Translations under genes and position numbers: made by a program
The notes under the pieces: model-generated
Seen by the model: only the letters and a program-made list of their open reading frames with translations
What the model was told of the DNA's origin: nothing
Databases searched by the model: none
Assembly: GCA_035459145.1 (NCBI GenBank)
Contig: DATHYN010000168.1
Coordinates: 11,058-75,057 of the forward strand
Length of the DNA: 64,000 nucleotides
Direction of reading: 5' to 3'
Source: Anaerolineae bacterium
Lineage (GTDB): Bacteria; Chloroflexota; Anaerolineae; Promineifilales; Promineifilaceae
Shown: in pieces, positions 13,746-30,647 of the stretch
How positions within the stretch are numbered: the stretch's first letter is position 1
Layout: each line of letters opens with the position of its first letter

Positions 13746-14756
13746 TTAATTGAAGCTATGCCTCACACTTGCTCGAAGGCGCTCTGGTGTTTGCCCTGTC
13801 CAAGCACGAAAGGCGCGATAGAACGAATTTACTTCTTCATACCCCAACAAGAATGCTATTTGTCCACTTGTGTAATCTGAGTTTGTTAGGTAATGACGTG
13901 CCAAATCTTCACGCAATTTATCTAAGACTTGCTGAAAACTGGTGCCATCACTCTTTAAATAGCGCTGTAAGGTTCGGCGACTGATAGCCAATCGCAAGGC
14001 CACATCATCAACGCTGTATTGCCCACTGGCCAAAATCTCCATCAAACAGGCACGTACTTTCTCAGTATAGGTAGCATTTTGTAACAAATCCTGCAGTCGC
14101 TGATTGAGATGGGACTCGAAGATTGACCACATGGTGTCGTTAGCAGTCAGAAATGGTCGCTCTGCATCTTGTATGGCGTATGTTACACCGTTAAAATCTG
14201 ATTTGGTGAGGCGCACACCGAAGTAATCTTCATATGCTTTTTTTTCGGGAATGTCCACATTTGTATGGATGCTCAAGGGCACAAGGTGTTCCCGTGTTGC
14301 CATGCGCGGCATATGCACCCACCAGACCAATTCCGCTGCCGCTAAACTTGGTGGCAACGCCCCATATTGGGGCAATGAACCGATTTTAATCGTGGTTTGT
14401 TCGTTCATGGTGTGAACGCTCAAGCGGATTGGGCCGACAAGGGGTTTGTAATGGGCGAGGCGTTTGGCCGCCACATTAAGATTCGGACTGCAGAAACAGG
14501 CAAATATTGGTGGGCTAAATGTTTCAGGTGTGGTACTCGTGGCAAAGTCTAACGGAAAAGTAGGATAGTCGCGTAGGACAGTTACAAACCCATCCCATAG
14601 TCTGAAGTACTCTTCACCTGTAATCATGGGTGATTTGCGAGATAGCAAATCGAGAGGTAACTGGGCATAGCGTAACACATCTTGTGATGAAACATTCATG
14701 TCCTTGAAGAGTATCTGCCACCCGTTCACCTCTACCGGGTATTTTCGATTATCCAT
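13746..14756 (-). CDS. AraC/XylS family transcriptional regulator
   Basis: The C-terminal AraC helix-turn-helix reads VDDVALRLAISRRTLQRYLK...SGQIAFLLGYEEVNSFYRAFRAWTGQTP. Confidence 0.85.
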   Translation of the reverse strand: MDNRKYPVEVNGWQILFKDMNVSSQDVLRYAQLPLDLLSRKSPMITGEEYFRLWDGFVTVLRDYPTFPLDFATSTTPETFSPPIFACFCSPNLNVAAKRLAHYKPLVGPIRLSVHTMNEQTTIKIGSLPQYGALPPSLAAAELVWWVHMPRMATREHLVPLSIHTNVDIPEKKAYEDYFGVRLTKSDFNGVTYAIQDAERPFLTANDTMWSIFESHLNQRLQDLLQNATYTEKVRACLMEILASGQYSVDDVALRLAISRRTLQRYLKSDGTSFQQVLDKLREDLARHYLTNSDYTSGQIAFLLGYEEVNSFYRAFRAWTGQTPERLRASVRHSFN

Positions 14757-14772
14757 GGGGGGTGTCCTTTTG

Positions 14773-15723
14773 TTACTTGAGGCCGACTAGGGCCATGCTG
14801 ACATCATACAGTTTGGCTGCAAGTTCAGTATCTTCCCCTTGTGGATGAGGCGATTTCATAGGCCAGCCGCCAGCGCGATTCTCTTTGTTAGGATAGAGGA
14901 TGCTATTTTGACTATAATAGGCACCATTGTGGTTAGGGGCATCATCATCGAGCAAGCAGTGGAGAGACGTTTGCGCACCTTCAAACCATGACATTGTGCC
15001 CAGCAGGCCGCTAAACGGCCGTAATAAAACATTCTGTACAAACTTGACTGGGCCTTTTGCCAGATTCGAGCGGATCCAGCCTGGATGAACGGAAAACGCA
15101 GAAACCCCCGTGCCTTCCAATCGTTGGGAGAGATCGAGTGCATGAAGAACATTGGCAAACTTAGAGTTAGCGTATGCCTGCCCGAAACGCCACTCTTTGT
15201 TGTTGAAATTCAAGTCATCAAAATCGATCTCACCAAAGATTCCGGTCATACCAGCATGGGCCACACTTGACACACAGATGATGCGTGATGGCGCACTGGC
15301 TTTCAGCATATCCAACAGAAGTTCGGTGAGCAGGAAATGCCCCAAGTGATTGACGCCAAAATCCATTTCAAACCCATCTTCAGTTCTGCCTTCAGTTTGA
15401 ACCGCAACGCCAGCGTTGTTAACAAGACCATCGAGCCGATCGTATTTGGCCTGAAACGCAGTTGCAAAACGTCGAACAGAGGCAAGGCTGGTGAGATCAA
15501 GTTCCATTATTTCGACTGAGCCTTTTAAGTTTCCCACTGCGGCAAAAGCTTCTTTTCCAGCATTAAGGCGACGGCAGGCACCCACCACATGAGCTCCCTG
15601 TTTAGCTAATTGTTCGGCCGTGGCAAAACCAGAACCAGAGTTGGCTCCCGTTACGATATAGATATGACCACTCAGGTCTTTTTTAAATAGTTTTGGATCA
15701 CACATCAATGTTTTGGGCATCAT
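14773..15723 (-). CDS. Short-chain dehydrogenase/reductase (SDR), retinol-dehydrogenase-like
   Basis: The TGANSGSG Rossmann motif is present. NNAG and the catalytic YANSK (YxxxK) are present. The gene sits adjacent to the AraC regulator. Confidence 0.9.
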   Translation of the reverse strand: MMPKTLMCDPKLFKKDLSGHIYIVTGANSGSGFATAEQLAKQGAHVVGACRRLNAGKEAFAAVGNLKGSVEIMELDLTSLASVRRFATAFQAKYDRLDGLVNNAGVAVQTEGRTEDGFEMDFGVNHLGHFLLTELLLDMLKASAPSRIICVSSVAHAGMTGIFGEIDFDDLNFNNKEWRFGQAYANSKFANVLHALDLSQRLEGTGVSAFSVHPGWIRSNLAKGPVKFVQNVLLRPFSGLLGTMSWFEGAQTSLHCLLDDDAPNHNGAYYSQNSILYPNKENRAGGWPMKSPHPQGEDTELAAKLYDVSMALVGLK

Positions 15724-15905
15724 AGCCTCCTTGTTTCAGCTTCTTTTTCAATTATTTGTATAACAGCTGGGATTTGCCACTTTATTTGGTGAAGCATTTG
15801 GCCGTTACTTTACTTAGTATAAGGGAACGTAGACAAGGAGTCATTATCGCATTGTGCCAATGAACTATCAAATGGTGCCAACGTGGGCAAGTGAAGAAAT
15901 TTAAA

Positions 15906-15940
15906 CAGAAAGATACGGTTTTAGAGTCCGTATCTTTCTG
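15906..15940 (-). terminator. Intrinsic terminator downstream of the SH3b lipoprotein gene
   Basis: The sequence cagaaagatacgg-ttttagagt-ccgtatctttctg is a perfect 13-bp stem. A T-rich tract follows on the minus-strand transcript. Confidence 0.6.
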
Positions 15941-15984
15941 TTCAGATCCCCCGCTTGGCCTTTTTTTAGAGAGGTGTTAGCAGA

Positions 15985-17223
15985 TTAGAGGCGGGTGGCG
16001 GCGGCGTCGATGGTGGGGTTGAGGAGGCCGAGGGCACTGTTGATACTTTGAACAGCGAGGCCATAGTTGAATTCATCGACGCGACCCGAATCCACGCAGG
16101 ATAGATAAGCGGGGCGGCTACGATCTAAAGCGTAGACGAATGATAAGAAGTAGGCCCCATCAAGATCTTGCCAATTGCCGGGAACATCATCGTAGAAGAC
16201 AGCATTGTTTTTGATGCTATTGTACGCATTGACGTAATTTTGACAGGCGACGGCATCACCGTTTAAGGTTTGCCCCAGATTGGCATTCATCGTGTTAAGG
16301 TTGTTGCGCATGGCTACCATCTTGTTGTAAAGCTGTTGGGCATTGAAGGGACGTATAGGGAAAACACCAAGGACATCATTAGGATTGGATTGGTAGTAGA
16401 GGGTGATGTATTCAGGGGTAGGAGCTGGGGTTGGGGTGGGTGGTACAGGTGTGGCTGGTGGGGCTGGGGGGACGATAAGATCTAAGGGGTCTAAGTCGGC
16501 GGTGAGGTCAAGGACAGATGTTGAAATCCAAGCTTCTTGGCCATTTTCTAATTCGGTGACAACCCAGCTTGTGTCTTGATTACGTCCGATGAGAACGAGA
16601 CTATCACCATTGGCGGCGGTGGCTAAGACGGGATAGGCGGTGGAGGGGCCGGAACGTAAATTGACAGAGCTAATGTTGACGGCACCGAAGATGCCGGCGT
16701 CAAGCGCGAGGGTCAATTCGATGGCACCTAAGGATTCGGTAACGGAAATTGTTTGGCTAGCGTAGTTGGGGGCGGAGGCGTAGACGACATAATCGGTGAG
16801 AGTGGGGTCGAGGTTAGTGAAAAGGGCATACCCCTCGTCATCAACGGAGAGGGTGGCAGTGTAACTATCTTCGGCACTGGTTAATTTGATAGAGGCGTTG
16901 GTTACAGGTTCATCTGTATCGCTATCGAGGATAAAAACCCCAATTTGAGGGACTGGTGTGGGGGTATTGGTCGGTGTTGGTGTGGGGGATGGTGTGTTGG
17001 TGGGAGTGGGGGTAGGGGTGTTGGTGGGGGTATTGGTTGGTTCGGGGGTGTTGGTGGGGGCCGAGGTTGGTTCGGGGGTGTCTGTTTCAGTTGTCGTAAC
17101 TTCTTCAGTTGCTTCAGCGACAGAGGCTGGTGTGGTGGCGGGCTCATCGCTACCACAGGCAACGGCAAAGATCAGTAATAAACAGGTGGCAAGCAAAAGC
17201 CGCCATGTTGATGGGGAAAACAT
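15985..17223 (-). CDS. Secreted lipoprotein with Pro/Thr-rich linkers and a bacterial SH3 (SH3b) domain
   Basis: There is a signal peptide with the lipobox FAVAC. PTNTPEPTNTPT repeats follow. The SH3b-like segment reads VNLRSGPSTAYPVLATAANGDSLVLIGRNQDTSWVVTELENGQEAWI. AAGGAG lies upstream of the ATG. Confidence 0.6.
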   Translation of the reverse strand: MFSPSTWRLLLATCLLLIFAVACGSDEPATTPASVAEATEEVTTTETDTPEPTSAPTNTPEPTNTPTNTPTPTPTNTPSPTPTPTNTPTPVPQIGVFILDSDTDEPVTNASIKLTSAEDSYTATLSVDDEGYALFTNLDPTLTDYVVYASAPNYASQTISVTESLGAIELTLALDAGIFGAVNISSVNLRSGPSTAYPVLATAANGDSLVLIGRNQDTSWVVTELENGQEAWISTSVLDLTADLDPLDLIVPPAPPATPVPPTPTPAPTPEYITLYYQSNPNDVLGVFPIRPFNAQQLYNKMVAMRNNLNTMNANLGQTLNGDAVACQNYVNAYNSIKNNAVFYDDVPGNWQDLDGAYFLSFVYALDRSRPAYLSCVDSGRVDEFNYGLAVQSINSALGLLNPTIDAAATRL

Positions 17224-17731: not shown

Positions 17732-20317
17732 TTATTTATGGGCGACCCATGCTTCTTCGGCTTGGAGGGCGCGGACTTTGGCGGGGGCTATTTTGCGGTA
17801 AACGGCCGTTGGCTCTTGTTTGTGACCATCAACAGTTAATAGTTCATCAATGGTAATGCCAAACAGGAGTTCGTTTTCGGCCAGATACGGTTTAATTAGG
17901 TTCCAATCGGCGTAGGTGAAGGTATAAAATTCGCCACCGTTGAGTTGGTCTTTGGTGAGACGGCGATGGGGGTCACGGACGAAGATGGCACCACCAGAGG
18001 CGAGGGAGAAGAGATTGCCGCCAGGATAAGGGGTGGGGAGCTCTTCGATTTGGCCGTTGTCGTTGAGGTGGATGCCGTTGAGGATGACAAAGCCACCATT
18101 GTTGTGTGGGTCGCCGGCCATGAAGGATTCGGCGAGGTAGTCGAGGCAAGTGCCGTTGATGACGAAGCGTGGCTTACCGACAGCGTTGATGAGGGGGCGG
18201 CCGGCGGCGTTGCCGAGGATGTAGGCTTGCCCCCCTTTGGCGGCATAGCCAAAGGTTTGGCCGACGTCACCATAGACGACAAGTTTGCCCGCTTTCATAA
18301 TTTGGGCGAGTTGGTCTTGGGCGTTGCCGTGAACGTAGATATCCATACCGTCAATGCCGGAAGCGAGATAGTCGCCACTAGCGCCATAGACGTCGATGCG
18401 GACGTCACTGCTATCGGGGCCGAAGCCGTTGCCAATGAAACGGTGGCCGCCGCAGTGGATGATGAGGAAGTGGCGAAAACCGTTGTTGTAGAGGGCGTTG
18501 AGGCGGGTGGCGACGGAGTGGGGGCCTTCTGGTTCAAAGCCGCGGGCGTCGATGATGGCGGTGCCACCGTCTGCGGTTTGGGCGGGGGTATCGGCTGCGG
18601 TTTGATAGGTGAATTTGGGGGTTGGCTTGGCTTGGATGAGAGCGAAGAGGTCGTTGAGGGCTTGGTGGCAGAGGGCGGTGAGGCTGCTGCGGCGGAGTTG
18701 GCCGAGGGGGAAGCGCCGGTCGACAAGGCCGGTGAGCAAATCGAGGGTTGCTTGACGGCTGTTATCGGTCTCGGTATCGGCGAGGAGGGCGGCGAGACAG
18801 GCGCGGAACTGTTCGTAGTCCCAGTTGGGGAGTTGGTTGGTGATCCATTCAAACCGATTGGTATCGGGGAGGGTAGGTTGTTCGTTGTTAGGGGTGTTGG
18901 TGGGACGGTAGGGAGGACGGCTGGTATCGAAATGGAGCTGTTGGCCGAATTTATCGGTGCAGGTGAGGGTGGCTGCTTGGCCGTCGGCGTCGGGGCGGGC
19001 GGTGAAGATGAAAGCACCGCCATCGGTGTGACTACCACCACGAGCGTTCCAGTAGCGGTCGGCAACGGACCAGAACCGGTTATCGGAGGCGGCGAGGGAG
19101 GTGAGGGCGGCATCGATACCTTGCTTTTCGGAGGCGGCGAAACCGATGGCAGGGCCATCGTCGCCCGCTTGTTGCCAAGCGAATACTTGGGGACGGAGCA
19201 TGGAGGTATCGGTGATACAGGTGAGACGGTAGACGGGTTCTTCGTTTTCGGCTTGGGATTGGGCGATAAGGAAGAACCAAGGGCCATCAGGGGAGCTGTG
19301 CATGTGCATTACTTGCAGATTGTGGTAAATGTCTTGTTTTTCGGGGGGGAGGAGGGTGAAATCTCGTTCGGTGGTGGGGGCGAGAGATTCGATCACATAT
19401 TCGAGGGGGTATTGATAGGTGCGATGGAGGAGATCGAAGACTTGGACAGAGACTTCGGTATCGGTGAGGAAGAGGGGGTAGATGTTGCGTTGAGCGAGAT
19501 ATTCGGAGATGGAGGCGTAATTGGCGAAGTCGCCATTGTGGACGAGGGCTTCGTTCATGCCAATGAAGGGGTGGGCACCGCCGGGGTGCCAGACGCGCCC
19601 TTTGGTGGGGTAGCGGTGGTGGCCGATCCAGACGTGGGCATTGATATCTTCGAGTTGGTAGTAGCGGATGACGTCATCGGCGTAGCCTACCATTTTGATG
19701 ACGAGGAGGTTGCGGCCGTGGGAGAGGACAAAGGCACGGGTGTCGCCGGTGGAAGCGTAGAACTCTTTATTGAGTTGGAAGGTGTTTTGGAAGACGATCT
19801 CGTCTTCGATTTGACGACGGCTGATGTCAAGATTGTGCTCGGCCTGAAAAGCGTCGAACGCTTCCTGTTTGACACGGACGAAATATTGATACACTTCTGG
19901 GGGACGGACATCGAGGCCGTGGAGGGTGGTGTGATCTTCGATATGGGGAGCTTGACGGCTATGGTCGATTTCAAAAATAGTGTTGATATATTTTTCTTCG
20001 ACATCAGCGCGGCAAGATTGATCGAGATAGGCGATAACGAGGAGATAATCTTGTTCGAGAATTTGGCGGGAGACACCAAATTGGTCTGGGTCGAGGCCAA
20101 CGGCGGCGATGCCGCCCCCTTTGCCGTTACCGCGGTTGCGCATCTGTTGGAGGGCTTGGAGCATGTGGCGGCCGCCGATTTTCTCGCTACAGGCGAGACC
20201 GATGACACCACAGCCACCCTCGGCCGCTTGGTTACGGTCATTAAATTGCAAATCCCAATCTGGTTTCAGTTGACGACGGGATTGGAGAATCGTTTTAATT
20301 GTTTGGGGAGAGGTCAT
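17732..20317 (-). CDS. Glutamate synthase subunit fusing a class II glutamine amidotransferase domain to the C-terminal GXGXG domain
   Basis: The N-terminal CGVIGLA follows the propeptide, marking an Ntn amidotransferase. The C-terminal third shows GltB domain-3 repeats: DVRIDVYGASGDYLASGIDGMDIYVHGNAQDQ...VVYGDVGQTFGYAAKGGQAYILGNAAGRPL...FVINGTCLDYLAESFMAG. Confidence 0.8.
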   Translation of the reverse strand: MTSPQTIKTILQSRRQLKPDWDLQFNDRNQAAEGGCGVIGLACSEKIGGRHMLQALQQMRNRGNGKGGGIAAVGLDPDQFGVSRQILEQDYLLVIAYLDQSCRADVEEKYINTIFEIDHSRQAPHIEDHTTLHGLDVRPPEVYQYFVRVKQEAFDAFQAEHNLDISRRQIEDEIVFQNTFQLNKEFYASTGDTRAFVLSHGRNLLVIKMVGYADDVIRYYQLEDINAHVWIGHHRYPTKGRVWHPGGAHPFIGMNEALVHNGDFANYASISEYLAQRNIYPLFLTDTEVSVQVFDLLHRTYQYPLEYVIESLAPTTERDFTLLPPEKQDIYHNLQVMHMHSSPDGPWFFLIAQSQAENEEPVYRLTCITDTSMLRPQVFAWQQAGDDGPAIGFAASEKQGIDAALTSLAASDNRFWSVADRYWNARGGSHTDGGAFIFTARPDADGQAATLTCTDKFGQQLHFDTSRPPYRPTNTPNNEQPTLPDTNRFEWITNQLPNWDYEQFRACLAALLADTETDNSRQATLDLLTGLVDRRFPLGQLRRSSLTALCHQALNDLFALIQAKPTPKFTYQTAADTPAQTADGGTAIIDARGFEPEGPHSVATRLNALYNNGFRHFLIIHCGGHRFIGNGFGPDSSDVRIDVYGASGDYLASGIDGMDIYVHGNAQDQLAQIMKAGKLVVYGDVGQTFGYAAKGGQAYILGNAAGRPLINAVGKPRFVINGTCLDYLAESFMAGDPHNNGGFVILNGIHLNDNGQIEELPTPYPGGNLFSLASGGAIFVRDPHRRLTKDQLNGGEFYTFTYADWNLIKPYLAENELLFGITIDELLTVDGHKQEPTAVYRKIAPAKVRALQAEEAWVAHK

Positions 20318-20340
20318 GATTTAATCCTATAGTGAAAAGT

Positions 20341-21651
20341 TTAGCCGATATAGCGGAGGAGGTCACGGCGGCCACGGAGTTGAGCGATGCTGGTGAGGCC
20401 GAGGCGGCGGAGAATATCTTCAAGTTGGTAGGCGATAGCTTGGTAGAGGTTGATGATGCGTTGTGAGCCCCAATCGGTGGTGATGAGGAGGGAGAGTTCG
20501 GGGTCGGTGGTGGTGAGACCATAGGGACAGCCACGGCCACGCTCACAGTTGGAGCAGCGGGTACAGCCCATGGCGACGAGATCGCCGGTGCCGATGACAC
20601 AGCCATCGGCGCCGAGGGCGATCGCTTTGGCCATGTCGTAGGCGGTGCGAATGCCGCCACTAGCGATCACGGTGACTTGGTCGCGGATGCCTTCGCTGTC
20701 GAGGTAGCGATGGACTTTGGGGATGGCGAATTCGATAGGCATGGCGATATTTTTCTTGGCGATTTCGGGGGCGGCGCCAGTGCCACCGTAAGAGCCGTCG
20801 AGGTGGATGATGTGGGCGCCAGCGTAGTAACTGCCGACAGCGACCATATCGACATCGTGGGGGGTGGAGACTTTGACGGAGATGAGGGCTTCGGGGTTGA
20901 TGGCGAGAACCCAATCGACATGTTTGCGGTGGTCTTCAACGGAGTAGACGGAGTGGAAGGGGAAGGGGGAGAAGAGGCTGACCCAAGGGACGCTTTCGCG
21001 CAGTTGGGCGACGGTGGTGGTGCTTTTGTCACCGAGAAGGTGGCCGCCGAGGCCGGGTTTAGCCCCTTGGGCGTATTTAAATTCGATGATGGGGGCATGT
21101 TGGATCGTTTCTTCACGGACACCGAACATACCGGTGGCAACTTGGGTGATGATAACATCTTTATACTCGATGAGAGCGGGCGGGTAGCCCCCTTCGCCGG
21201 TGCAGGTGAAAGTACCCATTTTACGGGCAGCGATAGCACGGGCGACCATGACTTGTTCGCTGACGGAGCCGTAGGACATGCCACCACCGTAGAAGGGGAG
21301 TTTGATGGTGTGTTCGCGGCCTTGGCCGCGGCGGTTGAGGGGGATGGAAAGGTCGATGTTGGTGTCGGTAGCGGTCCATTGGTCTTGAGGGAGGAATTTA
21401 AAGTCGAGGTGGTCGAAGCCACCATCAGAGCGACCGACACGGTATTCAAGGCCGTTGGTGGGTGGTTTGGCGTGTTCGGCCATGTACCAAGTGGAGAGGA
21501 TGAGGTCATCGGTCCAGCGGTGGTCGCCGAGGGCGGGTGGGGGGCCATTTTCTAGCGTTGGCCAGTAGGAAAAGCCATCATGGAGGGCTTTAATATGTTT
21601 ATTAACAGCGATTTGATTAACAGGAATTGTATTATTGTCGTTATTACTCAT
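20341..21651 (-). CDS. Glutamate synthase FMN-binding and Fe-S domain subunit, equivalent to GltB domain 2
   Basis: KYAQGAKPGLGGHLLG matches the FMN-domain signature QGAKPGEGG. ASGGIRTAYDMAKAIALGADGCVIGTG is present. A Cys cluster reads MGCTRCSNCERGRGCPYG. The start overlaps the stop of the upstream gene by 8 nt. Confidence 0.85.
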   Translation of the reverse strand: MSNNDNNTIPVNQIAVNKHIKALHDGFSYWPTLENGPPPALGDHRWTDDLILSTWYMAEHAKPPTNGLEYRVGRSDGGFDHLDFKFLPQDQWTATDTNIDLSIPLNRRGQGREHTIKLPFYGGGMSYGSVSEQVMVARAIAARKMGTFTCTGEGGYPPALIEYKDVIITQVATGMFGVREETIQHAPIIEFKYAQGAKPGLGGHLLGDKSTTTVAQLRESVPWVSLFSPFPFHSVYSVEDHRKHVDWVLAINPEALISVKVSTPHDVDMVAVGSYYAGAHIIHLDGSYGGTGAAPEIAKKNIAMPIEFAIPKVHRYLDSEGIRDQVTVIASGGIRTAYDMAKAIALGADGCVIGTGDLVAMGCTRCSNCERGRGCPYGLTTTDPELSLLITTDWGSQRIINLYQAIAYQLEDILRRLGLTSIAQLRGRRDLLRYIG

Positions 21652-23074
21652 TATAGCCCTCGATACCGGCGAACGCTTCGCGTTCTAAATCTTTGTGGAA
21701 CATAGCGCGGCCCATTTCGCCGCGGAGGCGGCGGACCTCGCGGAGGCCCATCGCGCCCATAATTTCGAGCAGTTGGTCACGCCAAGTGGCCATCACATTT
21801 TGGAGACGTTGGACGCCCCAGGGGATGTTGAGGTTGTGGGGGATGGTGCAGGGGTCGGTGGGGGATTTGTATTGACCTTTGAAGCGAGTTTGGAGGGCGA
21901 CGAGAAGGGGGGTATTGATGATGACGGCATCGAGGCCGGCGATAATCGCTTTGGGAACATGTTCGGCGGCGATGATGCCACCACTGCCGAGAAGGGTGAC
22001 CTCGTCGCGGGTGCCGTTATTGACGAAATGGTTATGGGCTTGGCGGATGAGGTCGAGGACGAAAGTGCCATCGGCGGCTTGGCCGTGGTAGTTGGCGGTG
22101 AGGTGGAAGATACGGATACCAGCGCCGTAGGCGGTGGCGATTGTTTTGAGGTCGGAGAAGGGGAGGCGGAGGGCGATGTGGGTGTGGGGGAGTTGTTGTT
22201 GGACAGTGGCGTATAGATTGGGGTCCCAGCTGTTTAATTCGACAAGTTTGGGGGTGTCGTGGAGGAGGCCGAGTTGGTGGCTGTTATCGGGGGTGAGGTG
22301 AGGGACGAGGTGGGGGCCGTGGAGGTGGTTGTCGAGGATGGTGCCGAGGGGGAGGATGGCGAGAGTTTGGACGTTGGTGGCGGTGCGACTGTAGATAGTG
22401 GGGAGGAGGGGGACATTAGGGTTTGGTGGGGGCATATCGAAGATGATGGGGAGGGGGATGGTGAAGGTATCTGGGGTATGGGTTTGGTCGAGAGAGCCAT
22501 CGGGATTGAAGAAGAGGAAGGGGGGTTTGGCGCCGATGTCGACGACGGTGGAGATAAATTCACGGCCGTGGATACCATCACGAGTGGGGCGGACGATTTC
22601 GGACATATCGGTCCACATGCTGTCCCAGCCGTGGCCGGCGAAGCGGCCGCGGTAGCCGGCGCCACGAACGGGGATGCGGCCGTGTTCGGCTTCGTAGGTG
22701 ATGGCATTGACGTGGGTGGTGTTGAAATAGTTGTCGCCGAGGGTAGCGCGTTCGGGATTGGGGGTGACGGTGACAAAGTCTGGGTGTTCAGTGGTACAGC
22801 GGAGACAGCCAACACAATATTGGTCCCGAGGCATAAAGCCACCAACAGGGCCAGAGAAGACACCATAAAGACAAGGGCGACTCAGCACGGTATCGAGGTC
22901 GCCTTTGTAGTGCCGTAGTTCGGTTAATAACAGTTTAGCTAAGCCGATTTTATTGACAGTGACATTAAAGCGACTGGGCCATGGGATAATATCGGGGGCG
23001 GGATCGGTTTCGATATGATAGCGCACATAGGCGTTGCTATTTGGTGTCGGAGGGGTATGATTATTTGCAGACAT
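21644..23074 (-). CDS. Paralog of the glutamate synthase domain-2 (FMN-domain-like TIM barrel) subunit with N-terminal Cys motifs
   Basis: TLLGSGGIIAAEHVPKAIIAGLDAVIINTPLLVAL resembles the GltS FMN-domain C-terminal barrel. CVGCLRCT is a ferredoxin-like motif. It lacks the QGAKPGEGG signature. AAAGAG lies 8 nt upstream of the ATG at 23074. The tracker start at 23101 is a TTG. Confidence 0.65.
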   Translation of the reverse strand: MSANNHTPPTPNSNAYVRYHIETDPAPDIIPWPSRFNVTVNKIGLAKLLLTELRHYKGDLDTVLSRPCLYGVFSGPVGGFMPRDQYCVGCLRCTTEHPDFVTVTPNPERATLGDNYFNTTHVNAITYEAEHGRIPVRGAGYRGRFAGHGWDSMWTDMSEIVRPTRDGIHGREFISTVVDIGAKPPFLFFNPDGSLDQTHTPDTFTIPLPIIFDMPPPNPNVPLLPTIYSRTATNVQTLAILPLGTILDNHLHGPHLVPHLTPDNSHQLGLLHDTPKLVELNSWDPNLYATVQQQLPHTHIALRLPFSDLKTIATAYGAGIRIFHLTANYHGQAADGTFVLDLIRQAHNHFVNNGTRDEVTLLGSGGIIAAEHVPKAIIAGLDAVIINTPLLVALQTRFKGQYKSPTDPCTIPHNLNIPWGVQRLQNVMATWRDQLLEIMGAMGLREVRRLRGEMGRAMFHKDLEREAFAGIEGYNE

Positions 23075-25654: not shown

Positions 25655-28132
25655 ATGGGATTATGTTTTATGAGCAGTAATGTAAAACAAACCAACAAAC
25701 CAGACACGCAAGACGAGGTATCGAAACAGGCGTGGCAGCAAGCATCGATTGTGACTGCCAACAGTTTGAATAAGGTAGCTCAAGATGCGCATGAGGCGGG
25801 GATGACACAGTTGTCGTTGCCGCAGATGACAGAGATGGTGGAGTCAGTCTCAAAGGCGGTACCAGCGGGTAATATACCTAGTCTGATATTAGAGCGTTTG
25901 ACGCAGATGCGGACGGAAACACCACCACAAGAGACGATGGATAAAGATATTTATCTATTATTTGATACCTCAAAACGGTTTATGAGTCAGGCGATGTATA
26001 TGACTTTTGCGGTGACGCCGGCCAAAGTGATTGGGTCGTATCAGAAGTTGTTGCAATTGGCGGGGATGGATCCATTGGCGTCATTTCCGGAAGGGGTGTG
26101 GCAATTTTATGTGAATTATGCATTGCGTGAAGATACGGCACGGCATACGAATGAGACGCATGGTTTTGACACGATTTTGAAGCGGTATGGGATTAGTTTG
26201 TCGTTGGTGGATCGGGTGACAGCGTGGGTGATGGGAGTAATTCATACGTTGCATGAGTATGATAGTTTATTAGAGAATGAGTGGCGGGAGCGGACATACA
26301 CCTATATTTTGCAGACAGTGATGGCTGATTCGGATGAGGCGGAGTGGTATGAGCGGATTTATCGGCGGTGGGAGGTGCAACGGCCGTTTCGTCGCAGTCA
26401 CGATGCGAAGTCACAAGAGACATATGCGCGCTATCGGCGACGGTTGTTTGATGAGTTTTTGCGTGAAGCGATAGATAAGTTGACACCAGAGCAGCAGATG
26501 GCATGGGGGCAGGCGGTTAAAGAGGCGAAAAAATCATTGCCCGCCTATCAGAAGCAGATGACGATTGCTTCTTTCTTAGAACCACATGCTTATGGGGAGA
26601 CACGGCATCGCATTCCGATTGATGAGTTGCAGGTGGGTATTATTCATGATGGTCATTATTATTTGATTCCGGCGTGTAAACCGGATACGAGTGAACCGGC
26701 ATCGGTGATGGAGGTACGGGCTCATGTGGCGGCGATTGTGGCGGATGAGGTACGGCCGACACCGACATCATTGATTCCGTTAGCGACGATGAAGCGGGCG
26801 GCATTGGCTGGTTATTTGCCATCGATGAGTAAATTGTTTCGGCAGAATTTAGATTTGTTGTGTAAAGCGCCTATTTTGATTAATACGGAGCCAAGGCCGA
26901 GGGGGTTGCCATTATCAGATTTGCGACAGGCCGAGCGGGGTATTGGATCCCATCCATTGACAATTTTTGATACGCACGAGACGTTTGTCTTTGATCAATC
27001 ACATATTTTCTTTGATGGAGCGTGGGGAGCGGGTTTAGCGGAGATTATTACGGGGCAGGCGTTGGCTTGGGGGCATTATCTGAACAATTTGAAGGTGCCG
27101 GCTGGTCGGAAAGAGGGGGTCGAGCCTTTGTTGTTTGTGTGGGAGAAGCGGGATCGGAAAAATTTGGTGCAGGTAACGGAACAAGTCATGTTAGAGGTGA
27201 GTGCGGAGACGGATGCGGTCGCTTTGCATGCAATTTTGGCCTTGCGCAAGTTGTGTAAGCAACGCAATGATCTGATTACGGTAACGGTTAATGATTTATT
27301 GATTTTGTATCGGGCTATTCATGCGATTACGTATCAGCCACAGGCACAATTGGTGATGGAGTTGGAGCAGTTGGCGACGGAACCAGAAAGTACTGAGGCG
27401 GCGATGATGGCGTTGAATGAGATTCAAAACCATCATAATCCAGCGTTGTTAATTCCAATTGATGCGACTCATCGGATTCCTGGGGATCGCGTTTACCCGA
27501 TGGTGTTTGAAGTGCCCTTGGAAGAGTTAAACTTCCTGAATTTGCACCGTAGCACGGTGAGGGCCTTAGATGCATATGAGACAGGGACGGGTGATCGCAC
27601 CCCGTTATACGCGGAATTTGATCGGTTACAGCGGACATATTTGGCGAACCTAGCCGGTTTTGGTATGGTGTTGACGCGAGCGAAGTTGGCGGCCACAGCG
27701 GGCGAGTCAGTTAGTACACAAGCGATACGTATGTTAGCTAATTTGCCCACAGCAGTACAGCGGATGTTAGATGATATTCCATCCCGTTTTGAAGTGTTAA
27801 ATGATATGATTAAAGGGCGGGAAGTTTTTTCTAATTGCGGGGCGGTGGTGTCAACAAGCTCTTTGACACGGTTTAATACAGCTAAAGATGATAATCAACA
27901 CAAAGTATTAGCTTGGGGCGTTTTAACGGATGCTAAGGGGATTATGCATATTACCTTGCGCGATTTTCGACCACATGTGTGGGCGCTAATCGAAACGGGA
28001 CGGCGTGATTTAGCCCAAAGGATTACAGCAGATTATTTACAAAGTTATGCAATTGGTTTGAATGTTTTTGTTCAGGAAGTACGGCGCATCACCGCGGTTA
28101 GTCGTGAAACCCAACTAGTAATGGATATGTAG
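25655..28132 (+). CDS. Large 825-aa conserved-looking hypothetical protein with no recognisable domain and no transmembrane segment
   Basis: The reading frame is uninterrupted and codon usage is coding-like. Its stop TAG lies 2 nt before the ATG of the downstream Ser/Thr kinase, which implies translational coupling. Confidence 0.6.
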   Translation: MGLCFMSSNVKQTNKPDTQDEVSKQAWQQASIVTANSLNKVAQDAHEAGMTQLSLPQMTEMVESVSKAVPAGNIPSLILERLTQMRTETPPQETMDKDIYLLFDTSKRFMSQAMYMTFAVTPAKVIGSYQKLLQLAGMDPLASFPEGVWQFYVNYALREDTARHTNETHGFDTILKRYGISLSLVDRVTAWVMGVIHTLHEYDSLLENEWRERTYTYILQTVMADSDEAEWYERIYRRWEVQRPFRRSHDAKSQETYARYRRRLFDEFLREAIDKLTPEQQMAWGQAVKEAKKSLPAYQKQMTIASFLEPHAYGETRHRIPIDELQVGIIHDGHYYLIPACKPDTSEPASVMEVRAHVAAIVADEVRPTPTSLIPLATMKRAALAGYLPSMSKLFRQNLDLLCKAPILINTEPRPRGLPLSDLRQAERGIGSHPLTIFDTHETFVFDQSHIFFDGAWGAGLAEIITGQALAWGHYLNNLKVPAGRKEGVEPLLFVWEKRDRKNLVQVTEQVMLEVSAETDAVALHAILALRKLCKQRNDLITVTVNDLLILYRAIHAITYQPQAQLVMELEQLATEPESTEAAMMALNEIQNHHNPALLIPIDATHRIPGDRVYPMVFEVPLEELNFLNLHRSTVRALDAYETGTGDRTPLYAEFDRLQRTYLANLAGFGMVLTRAKLAATAGESVSTQAIRMLANLPTAVQRMLDDIPSRFEVLNDMIKGREVFSNCGAVVSTSSLTRFNTAKDDNQHKVLAWGVLTDAKGIMHITLRDFRPHVWALIETGRRDLAQRITADYLQSYAIGLNVFVQEVRRITAVSRETQLVMDM

Positions 28133-28134
28133 CA

Positions 28135-29958
28135 ATGGAAGATGGCTTAGTTGGTCGCCGATTGGCGAATTATCGCATTGAGAGATTATTGGGTCAAGGG
28201 GGGATGGCTCAAGTATATTATGGTATTGATGAGAGTTTGCATCGTCCGGTGGCGATCAAGGCGATTGATTCGCGTTGGGGGCATCGGGAGACGTACATTC
28301 AGCGTTTGATTCAAGAAGCGCGGTCAATGGCGACATGGCGTCATGAGCATATTTTGCAGGTGTATTATGCGGGGCAAGAAGAGTATCTGTATTATTTTGC
28401 TATGGAGTATATTGACGGGCTTAATTTAGAGCAATCATTGACAGAGTATGGCGCGCGTGGGCAGTTAGCACCACAAGATGATGTATTGAACATTGGGGAG
28501 GCGGTAGCGTCTGCGTTAGATTATGCGCATGAGAAAGGGGTGGTACATCGGGATATAAAGCCGTCTAATGTGATGATTGCGAAAGATGGGCGGGTGGTAT
28601 TGGCGGATTTCGGGTTGGCGATGGATCAGCAGAGAGGGTCGTTGGGGGAGACGTTTGGGTCGCCACATTATATAGCGCCGGAGCAGGCGCGGAGCTCAGC
28701 GGCGGCGGTAGCGCAGTCGGATTTGTATGCGTTGGGGGTGATTTTGTATGAGATGTTAACGGGGGTGGTACCGTTTGATGATCCGTCACCGATGAGTATT
28801 GCGTTGATGCATTTGACAGATGCGCCACCATCGCCGCGGCAACTGAATCCGCGGTTGAATGAAGCGACGGAAGAGGTGTTGTTGAAGGCGTTGAGCAAGG
28901 AGCCTGAGGATCGGTATCCGTCGGGGGAGGCGTTAATGGAGGCGTTGCGGGAGGCGTTGGCTGAAGGGGAGATGGAGCCGGAGGTGCCGACGGAGTTGCC
29001 GCCGATGCCAACGGCCGTTTCAACCCCCTATGCGCGGCCGGTATCGCAGATGTCGATTGTGGATTTGGTGATGTTGCAGGCCGAGGCGGGTGTTGATTCT
29101 TTTTCGAACTTACCAAAAGTAGCCACGTCGAATAGTGTTATGAGGGAAGAGTTGCCCCGGTTGCCGGCGAGTGTGGTGACACCTGATCAAGGGCAAAAGC
29201 GGCAACAACGGTTTATCTATGGGGCTTTGGTCGGTTTGGTGTTGGTTGCTTTGTGTGGGGTGGTGTGGTTTATTCTTAATCCTGATCTTTTTATTCAAGT
29301 GGTTGATCCCACGCCGACATCGACGCCAACGACGGCGCCAACGCGGCAGCAAATTGTGGATGTGTCTTCCCCAACGGTAACGGCATCGGCCACACCGATT
29401 CCGGTGCCTAAAATCACACGGTTGACGCCAACTAACACACCAACCTTAACACCGTCGCCGTCGCCGACGGCGACGCCTGTGCCACCAACGCGGACACCAA
29501 CACCGACAAAGGTAACGACGCCGACAGCGACACCAACGGCGACACCCGTTACTGAAGGGCAACAGGTATTATTGTTATACAATGATTATAGTTTTTATCT
29601 ATTAAATTTAAGCGAAGATATCATCACGCCTAATTTATTGGTTTTAGAAGCGATTGATAATAGTACGGGAGATGGTACTAATTATCTATTTCCAGGGAAT
29701 CAATGGTCCCGTTTCTTCCCGCAAATTGATCCGGGGTATTGTGGCGGCATTGAGCCGGTTGAATCACCAGCCTTTCGTTTGTTGCGACCAACACAGTGTA
29801 CGGGATTTAATGCGATTGTGACCCCTGGGACAGACAATGAGTTGGTCTTTTGGATAGCGCGTGAGAATGTTGATCAGTTTCGTGCGTTGTGGCGCGGTCG
29901 TGAAGTGGGACGTTGTGATAGCCAAGTATCCGTTTGCGAAATATTTTTACCAGAATAA
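28135..29958 (+). CDS. Hanks-type serine/threonine protein kinase with one transmembrane helix, a Pro/Thr-rich linker and an unknown extracellular Cys-containing domain
   Basis: The glycine loop LGQGGMAQVY is present with AIK. The catalytic loop reads HRDIKPSN and DFG reads DFGLA. APE is present. The transmembrane segment is LVGLVLVALCGVVWFIL. TPTPT repeats follow. Confidence 0.9.
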   Translation: MEDGLVGRRLANYRIERLLGQGGMAQVYYGIDESLHRPVAIKAIDSRWGHRETYIQRLIQEARSMATWRHEHILQVYYAGQEEYLYYFAMEYIDGLNLEQSLTEYGARGQLAPQDDVLNIGEAVASALDYAHEKGVVHRDIKPSNVMIAKDGRVVLADFGLAMDQQRGSLGETFGSPHYIAPEQARSSAAAVAQSDLYALGVILYEMLTGVVPFDDPSPMSIALMHLTDAPPSPRQLNPRLNEATEEVLLKALSKEPEDRYPSGEALMEALREALAEGEMEPEVPTELPPMPTAVSTPYARPVSQMSIVDLVMLQAEAGVDSFSNLPKVATSNSVMREELPRLPASVVTPDQGQKRQQRFIYGALVGLVLVALCGVVWFILNPDLFIQVVDPTPTSTPTTAPTRQQIVDVSSPTVTASATPIPVPKITRLTPTNTPTLTPSPSPTATPVPPTRTPTPTKVTTPTATPTATPVTEGQQVLLLYNDYSFYLLNLSEDIITPNLLVLEAIDNSTGDGTNYLFPGNQWSRFFPQIDPGYCGGIEPVESPAFRLLRPTQCTGFNAIVTPGTDNELVFWIARENVDQFRALWRGREVGRCDSQVSVCEIFLPE

Positions 29959-29981
29959 CGGCGTTAAAAGATATTTTTTTG

Positions 29982-30647
29982 ATGGACTTAGCTTTTCAAC
30001 ACAAGTGGGATATTACAGCCGAAGAGGCCAAACAGTTGCAAATCGAGTTAGCTAGCCGGGTGGTTAGGCGTGATATGGTGGGGACAGTTCGTTATGTTGC
30101 TGGTGTCGATGTTGCTTTTTTTGACGAGGGGCGTATATCACAGGGAGCGGTTGTGGTTTTATCGTGGCCTGAGTTGCAAATTGTGGCGCAGGAGGTAGCT
30201 CGCCAAGAGACAACTTTTCCGTATGTGCCTGGCTTTTTATCTTTTCGAGAAGTGCCTGTTTTGCTGGCCGCATTAGCCAAGCTAGAGCAAGTACCGGATT
30301 TGATTTTGTGTGACGGGCAGGGAGTGGCTCATCCACGGCGGTTTGGGTTAGCGTGTCATTTAGGGGTTTTAACAGATATAGCGACAATAGGTGTGGCCAA
30401 AACTCGTTTTATTGGTGTGCATGAAGAGGTGCCGGTAGCACGTGGGAGTTCGGTTCGTTTAGTGGATAGTGGTGAAGAGGTGGGGCGAGTGGTGCGGACA
30501 CAAGCTGGGGTTCGTCCTTTGTATGTGTCTGTAGGGCATAAGGTGTCGTTGGAAACGGCCGTTACGTATGTTTTAGGATGTGCTCCCCGTTTCCGACTCC
30601 CAGAAACAACGCGCCAAGCAGATCGCTTGGCACGCATAAGATTATAG
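29982..30647 (+). CDS. nfi: Endonuclease V, the deoxyinosine 3' endonuclease
   Basis: Conserved blocks match E. coli Nfi: MDLA...VAGVDVAFF, PYVPGFLSFREVP, DLILCDGQGVAHPRRFGLACHLGVLTDIATIGVAKTRF. Confidence 0.9.
   Translation: MDLAFQHKWDITAEEAKQLQIELASRVVRRDMVGTVRYVAGVDVAFFDEGRISQGAVVVLSWPELQIVAQEVARQETTFPYVPGFLSFREVPVLLAALAKLEQVPDLILCDGQGVAHPRRFGLACHLGVLTDIATIGVAKTRFIGVHEEVPVARGSSVRLVDSGEEVGRVVRTQAGVRPLYVSVGHKVSLETAVTYVLGCAPRFRLPETTRQADRLARIRL

Follow-up and report, generated by a model that had tools for sequence, protein, structure and literature searches.

In a stretch of 64,000 nucleotides from a Chloroflexota genome labelled Anaerolineae bacterium (contig DATHYN010000168.1; hereafter the window, by which we mean the whole stretch that was analysed), a gene encoding an 825-residue cytoplasmic protein is directly followed by a gene encoding a membrane-anchored Hanks-type Ser/Thr kinase. 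We propose that this receptor kinase controls the 825-residue protein, an enzyme with the fold of carnitine/choline acyltransferases, as its dedicated output through threonine phosphorylation, and we give this reading a probability of roughly 60%.

The arguments in favour of this hypothesis come from the fold of the protein, from the conservation of the gene pair, and from fusions found in distant relatives. First, the 825-residue protein, which the initial annotation had left without a recognisable identity, acquires one from its predicted structure. An early AlphaFold2 model built from 27 sequences reached a predicted local distance difference test (pLDDT) value of 71, with the N-terminus and residues 685–747 unresolved, and was superseded by a second model, based on 147 sequences, with a pLDDT of 91.1 and a predicted template-modelling score (pTM) of 0.90. 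In a Foldseek search with this model the top 28 matches were all chains of carnitine/choline acyltransferases (E-values from 6e-12 to 3e-8, template-modelling scores to the target of 0.54–0.61), and the next tier, condensation and cyclisation (C/Cy) domains of non-ribosomal peptide synthetases (NRPS), came at 2e-4, four orders of magnitude behind. The model has the two domains (N and C) of a carnitine acyltransferase-like fold of about 600 residues, and the best structural match of the protein lies in none of the NRPS condensation, PapA5, WS-DGAT, BAHD or E2 branches. Judging from the model, the protein belongs to a bacterial branch of the choline/carnitine O-acyltransferase fold that has diverged strongly. 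Assignment to a well-known family, which the initial annotation would have counted against its own proposal, thus applies in part: the fold is that of the acyltransferases, yet the protein is an unannotated offshoot, about 9–12% identical to them and, like the rest of its family, about 200 residues longer than the eukaryotic enzymes (590–630 residues).

The sequences of the family point in the same direction. The open reading frame (ORF) is clearly a real gene, because more than 1182 homologues match it at about 50–55% identity over the full length; all of them are labelled 'hypothetical', and the set collapses to 262 clusters at 50% identity. Three members that share 33–46% identity with the window protein pass the gathering threshold of the Pfam model PF00755 (22.3 bits): P0146 (E=8.9e-11, 41.5 bits, residues 304–520 aligned to profile positions 162–390, a match that covers the equivalent histidine, His435), P0124 (E=4.3e-7, 29.3 bits), and P0132 (E=2.9e-5, 23.3 bits). 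Two independent family profiles searched against PDB retrieved solely CPT2, ChAT, and CrOT, with weak E-values (0.06–1.2) and every time on one hallmark conserved region; a lone match of the profile of diverse members (A2) to a fusion of a G-protein-coupled receptor was judged spurious. The family alignment contains unusually many invariant residues, among them the block SHIFFDGAWG. The initial annotation had stated that the protein has no recognisable motif; this holds for transmembrane segments (none is predicted by the hydropathy scan) and for Pfam and NCBIfam matches, and fails for this invariant block, which contains an HxxxDG motif starting at His450. In the model the motif is placed between a strand (residues 444–449) and a long helix (residues 455–478), which would be the arrangement expected for the catalytic histidine of the superfamily. 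The carnitine/choline acyltransferase family is defined by its two-domain architecture with the catalytic histidine at the interface, and the lysines that contact the 3'-phosphate of coenzyme A (CoA) in CrAT are Lys419 and Lys423 (PMC11852590). Another conserved block of the 825-residue family, 'EVFSNVG...S(S/T)L(T/R)RF..AKDDN', sits where C-terminal acyltransferase motifs are expected, a correspondence that is a guess.

A few relatives deserve mention on their own. The sole one seen outside Chloroflexota is a 704-residue protein of Paenibacillus plantiphilus (P0199, WP_236339979.1), with about 29–30% identity and the UniRef name 'Condensation domain-containing protein'. A family member from outside the window, P0122 (1127 residues), has a C-terminal FGE-sulfatase domain (residues 878–1124) and is devoid of a kinase domain; a fusion, the product of a deletion, or an artefact of assembly might explain this. 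Bacterial choline acetyltransferases described in 2026 were ruled out as relatives, being unrelated hexapeptide-repeat enzymes. The searchable literature yielded no account of the 825-residue family or of its pairing with a kinase.

Second, the two genes have been kept together across a large part of the phylum. A scan of one genome per species of the GTDB found relatives of the 825-residue protein in 293 candidate stretches, of which the best 80 loci were analysed; all are from Chloroflexota (Anaerolineae, Caldilineae, Ardenticatenaceae, Thermoflexales, and metagenome-assembled genomes (MAGs) labelled Herpetosiphonaceae), and the counts of coupling use the 78 loci whose downstream sequence is long enough. 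A Hanks kinase is encoded downstream on the same strand in 70 of these. The gap between the genes is of at most 60 nucleotides (nt) in 58 loci, and start and stop codons overlap in 45 (gaps of −11 to −1 nt; by 4 nt in 25 of those); the gap is of 61–300 nt in nine kinase-bearing loci, and one gene intervenes in the last three, an MscS channel in two cases (L007 and L073). The adjacent kinases are orthologues of the window kinase, with catalytic domains that are typically about 55–70% identical. Around 29 of the 70 kinase-bearing loci (e.g., L003:2449-5307, L018:8401-11286, and L021:8398-12644) have a second Hanks kinase domain downstream, encoded in tandem as a separate membrane kinase or fused; the window has a single kinase. 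The fused form is a tandem-kinase protein of 900–1050 residues with a single transmembrane segment. An all-against-all clustering of the neighbouring ORFs revealed no conserved partner besides the kinase: the next commonest clusters—a tyrosine recombinase, ABC transporters, and a class IV aminotransferase—are found in 14–18 loci and look like lineage synteny. The initial annotation had placed the stop codon of the first gene 2 nt ahead of the start of the kinase gene, had suggested from this spacing a protein dedicated to the kinase as its partner, substrate, or scaffold, and had asked whether homologues are always found next to such kinases. Both ORFs are indeed found there, with 'CA' between them, a spacing that fits translational coupling, and the comparative data bear the suggestion out, since the homologues are mostly kinase-adjacent, the kinase is their sole conserved neighbour, and further relatives are fused to FHA domains (see below). 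From these patterns in the genomes, the enzyme-like protein and the kinase are probably a dedicated pair. A gene for an MscS-type channel is found close to the pair in 6 of the 80 loci, including two where it sits between the two genes (L007:8530-9465, L073:3365-4300) and one where it comes right after the acyltransferase-like gene (L067:8603-9442); this is too sparse, and a link to osmoregulation was dropped.

Third, some members of the family carry a phosphothreonine reader of their own. Five proteins with 24–36% identity to the window protein (P0143, P0155, P0158, P0203, and P0227) have an N-terminal forkhead-associated (FHA) domain, PF00498, a domain that the Pfam scan did not find in the window protein; P0271, a member of the P0158 cluster, is labelled Anaerolineae. 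None of the five FHA-fused loci examined (L081:2165-5122, L084:1273-4167, L086:1943-4891, L087:1085-3778, and L082:7001-10012) has an adjacent kinase. That the gene is either adjacent to a kinase or fused to a phosphothreonine reader is expected if the enzyme is recruited or regulated through threonine phosphorylation, and the fusions would tie the family to Ser/Thr-phosphorylation signalling independently of the gene pair. A FolC-like Mur ligase (Mur_ligase_M, Mur_ligase_C, FOL3_C) is encoded directly after four of the five FHA-fused genes, and purH follows the gene of the divergent member P0146; these neighbours could reflect a folate/purine link or mere synteny.

The kinase itself corresponds to its initial description as a Hanks kinase with one transmembrane segment, a Pro/Thr linker, and an extracellular domain with four cysteines. 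Its VAIK (VAIKAI), HRDIKPSN, DFG (DFGLA), and APE (IAPE) motifs are intact, and a comparable hydrophobic segment around residues 320–390 recurs in most adjacent kinases of related loci that have a single kinase domain. The NCBIfam model NF033483 (Stk1/PknB) matches residues 13–381 with 306 bits, below its cut-off of 450, and the Pfam scan found no PASTA repeats. In the extracellular tail, all four cysteines and a tryptophan, a phenylalanine, and a glutamate are invariant across 33 aligned orthologous tails (A3), and tblastn finds this tail in 41 adjacent kinases of related loci. The domain had been called uncharacterised, which agrees with the negative outcome of profile searches of Pfam and of PDB sequences; a word-indexed homologue search with the tail also gave no matches. 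Among 120 kinase homologues, the tail is present in the kinase itself and in P0276 only, and close relatives have other domains in its place, in several cases an FGE-sulfatase. This points to a candidate for a new extracellular sensor domain.

How might such a pair work? The four-cysteine domain would sense an external cue and thereby activate the kinase. The latter would interact physically with the enzyme, either by phosphorylating it directly or by docking it in a phosphorylation-dependent way, and phosphorylation would switch the activity, the localisation, or the complex formation of the enzyme. The enzyme would most likely transfer, by means of His450, an acyl group from acyl-CoA to a hydroxyl or amine acceptor. 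The invariant Thr34 was considered as the phospho-acceptor and set aside, as it sits in a confidently predicted N-terminal helix. We also put forward, tentatively, a broader version of this scenario: a device found across Chloroflexota, in which a receptor kinase is wired one-to-one to an acyltransferase as a direct, phospho-regulated output, the FHA-bearing paralogues link this enzyme to other kinases, and the family is a deep-branching prokaryotic sister group of the eukaryotic carnitine/choline acyltransferases that acts on a new acceptor substrate. As a whole, this version is possible and rather less likely than the control of the enzyme by its kinase in itself.

Several observations weigh against a kinase-controlled acyltransferase. 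The window protein has zero matches in Pfam and NCBIfam and does not reach PF00755 even at E≤0.1, and phmmer searches of PDB sequences with this protein and with P0146 retrieved no relatives. Its identity to solved carnitine/choline acyltransferases is of 8–12%, and neither the carnitine/choline-binding residues nor the STS oxyanion motif is recognisable in its sequence. The predicted position of His450 at the domain interface relies on the motif and on the order of the secondary-structure elements, and the HMMER alignment to CPT2 displaces the motif by five residues. The motif histidine is absent in 5 of 40 diverse members, and two kinase-coupled orthologues from Anaerolineales (L028:5989-8427 and L060:5989-8427) carry an alanine instead, with SAIFFDS replacing SHIFFDG; both loci still have two adjacent kinases, in swapped order. 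Their products may be pseudoenzymes, and there are therefore lineages that do not require catalysis. As for the coupling, the kinase is absent within 6 kb in 8 of the 78 loci; an adjacent kinase is also missing for P0131, P0138, and P0146, divergent members that have no FHA domain.

The loss of the histidine speaks for an alternative in which the fold serves as a non-catalytic adaptor or regulatory subunit, presenting substrates, for example, or sensing acyl-CoA or another metabolite. The histidine is gone not only from the two kinase-coupled orthologues but from several divergent members, including the FHA-fused P0203 and P0227, and many of the invariant residues lie outside the motif, in the N-terminal extension and in the segment 685–775. 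Yet the histidine, the aspartate, and the SHIFFDGAWG block are kept in 76 of the 78 orthologues and in 35 of the 40 diverse members, and the whole two-domain catalytic fold is preserved and modelled with high confidence, so that we find a scaffold rather unlikely. It is unlikely, too, that the flow of information is reversed, with the enzyme upstream of the kinase or acting on it, be it by acylating the kinase or its substrates, or by making an acylated small molecule or envelope component that the extracellular domain of the kinase monitors as feedback. The enzyme-first gene order and the tight coupling, which imply equimolar synthesis, would suit this arrangement, as would the fact that the enzyme is constant where the sensor varies, with 41 kinases bearing the four-cysteine tail and relatives bearing FGE-sulfatase or other domains; but the FHA fusions suggest an enzyme that is recruited to phosphothreonine, and hence downstream of a kinase.

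The two genes might also be mere operon neighbours, co-inherited and co-transcribed while serving separate processes. Hanks kinases are numerous in Chloroflexota (5014 proteins match the window kinase at E≤1e-30), and the loci and divergent subfamilies without a kinase would be unsurprising under this explanation. However, the pair is retained while all other neighbours change, start and stop codons overlap in 45 of the loci, the adjacent kinase is a specific orthologue, and the FHA fusions occur only where the kinase is absent; we regard the lack of a direct functional link as quite improbable. Finally, an anti-phage defence pair of kinase and effector partner is very improbable: the catalytic domain of the kinase does match the PADLOC models PD-T4-6 and mad6 and the NCBIfam model MADS6, but these matches are generic to kinase domains and score under the curated thresholds, the 825-residue protein has no PADLOC match and only one of the two components is thus represented, and the genes lie in a housekeeping neighbourhood as a widely conserved chromosomal set and not as a patchy island.

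Table 1. Features of the gene pair, in coordinates of the window (position 1 is its first nucleotide; aa, amino acid residues).
Feature	Position	Strand	Basis
Gene for the 825-aa cytoplasmic protein with predicted choline/carnitine O-acyltransferase fold	25655..28132	+	ATG start; TAG stop at 28130-28132
Family-specific helical N-terminal extension, ~aa 1-160	25655..26134	+	Conserved PAGNxPG and WQFYxxYALREDTARHxNETHGFD motifs
Putative catalytic motif H450-I-F-F-D454-G455 (HxxxDG)	27002..27019	+	Invariant in alignment A1
Gene junction: TAG, 2 nt 'CA', ATG of the kinase	28130..28137	+	Sequence
Gene for the 607-aa membrane-anchored Hanks-type Ser/Thr kinase	28135..29958	+	ATG start
Kinase catalytic domain, aa 13-266	28171..28932	+	Pfam Pkinase PF00069, E=1.2e-47
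Single predicted transmembrane segment, aa 358-390	29206..29304	+	Hydropathy scan, mean Kyte-Doolittle 2.7
Pro/Thr-rich low-complexity extracellular linker, ~aa 391-470	29305..29544	+	Read in translation
Extracellular C-terminal domain, ~135-137 aa, 4 Cys	29545..29955	+	Alignment A3

The true start of the first gene may be at position 25670 instead (Table 1), because the NCBI record of an identical protein (P0001, from a MAG labelled Anaerolineae bacterium) begins at Met6 and has 820 residues. A scan for promoters and terminators gave a result no better than that on shuffled sequence. The pair is surrounded by genes for a GAF-GAF histidine kinase, endonuclease V, and housekeeping functions. 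The endonuclease V ORF (29934–30647) opens with TTG and shares 25 nt with the 3' end of the kinase gene; its Pfam match starts at residue 38, and the real start may be further downstream.

The composition of the window is unusual. The + strand of positions 1–64000 has 21510 G against 10864 C (GC skew of +0.33), and nearly all 2-kb bins have skews between +0.18 and +0.48, the sole bin where the skew collapses (+0.03) being 14001–16000; in the 80 homologous loci of other Chloroflexota the skew ranges from just −0.12 to +0.07. At third codon positions of + strand genes, G accounts for about 0.42–0.58 and C for about 0.04–0.09. Genes on the minus strand are the mirror image, and the bias therefore follows the DNA strand and not the orientation of genes. 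Long ORFs on opposite strands overlap at 17732–20332, 20667–21555, and 22234–22918 (e.g., 861 residues on the minus strand against 795 on the + strand); the minus-strand ORF at 17732–20317, the only overlapping one scanned against Pfam, encodes a GXGXG glutamate-synthase-type domain. It is probably the skewed composition that gives rise to the antisense ORFs.

How does this pair compare with known systems? The choline/carnitine O-acyltransferase family is mainly eukaryotic. With the PF00755 enzymes (CrAT, CrOT, CPT1/2, and ChAT) the 825-residue family shares an HxxxDG motif, located between a beta-strand and a long helix in the model, and an alignable region with the patterns 'H-v-V..g.fY.ldV...Ls...l..ql..I' and 'lT...R..wa..R..L'; it differs from them in being bacterial, from Chloroflexota, and coupled to the gene of a receptor kinase. 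Our analysis thus brings a large bacterial clade under the carnitine/choline acyltransferase fold. More than 1000 'hypothetical proteins' for which there is no Pfam or NCBIfam model receive a fold and a probable chemistry in this way.

To our knowledge, a defined and dedicated output is established for few of the bacterial Hanks kinases, and most of the known substrates of these kinases were found one by one in actinobacteria and firmicutes. A pair present in at least 293 species representatives offers a system of one kinase and one effector that can be put to the test, in a phylum that has received little study. Like the PASTA-type kinases (PknB, Stk1, and PrkC), the window kinase has an N-terminal Hanks domain, one transmembrane helix, and an extracellular sensor, but it is devoid of PASTA repeats and has instead a four-cysteine domain behind a Pro/Thr linker. 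The actinobacterial circuits in which PknG or PknB act on GarA or OdhI differ in other ways: the FHA protein acts as a small, free-standing inhibitor, the enzyme is the multi-enzyme 2-oxoglutarate dehydrogenase complex, and there is no one-to-one coupling of genes. PMC6213207, citing Gupta et al. (2009), presents PapA5 as a substrate of PknB that binds the FHA protein Rv0019c. By analogy, PapA5 may be regarded as a precedent, in the same enzyme superfamily, for a kinase-linked acyltransferase, with clear differences: PapA5 of M. tuberculosis, with about 420 residues, is condensation-like rather than an enzyme of the carnitine-acyltransferase type, its gene does not adjoin that of the kinase, the FHA domain belongs to another protein, and PknB has PASTA sensor domains. 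In this comparison, the fold of the enzyme and the class of the kinase are known, and what appears to be new is their conserved and dedicated pairing, together with the uncharacterised sensor domain through which it would be controlled.

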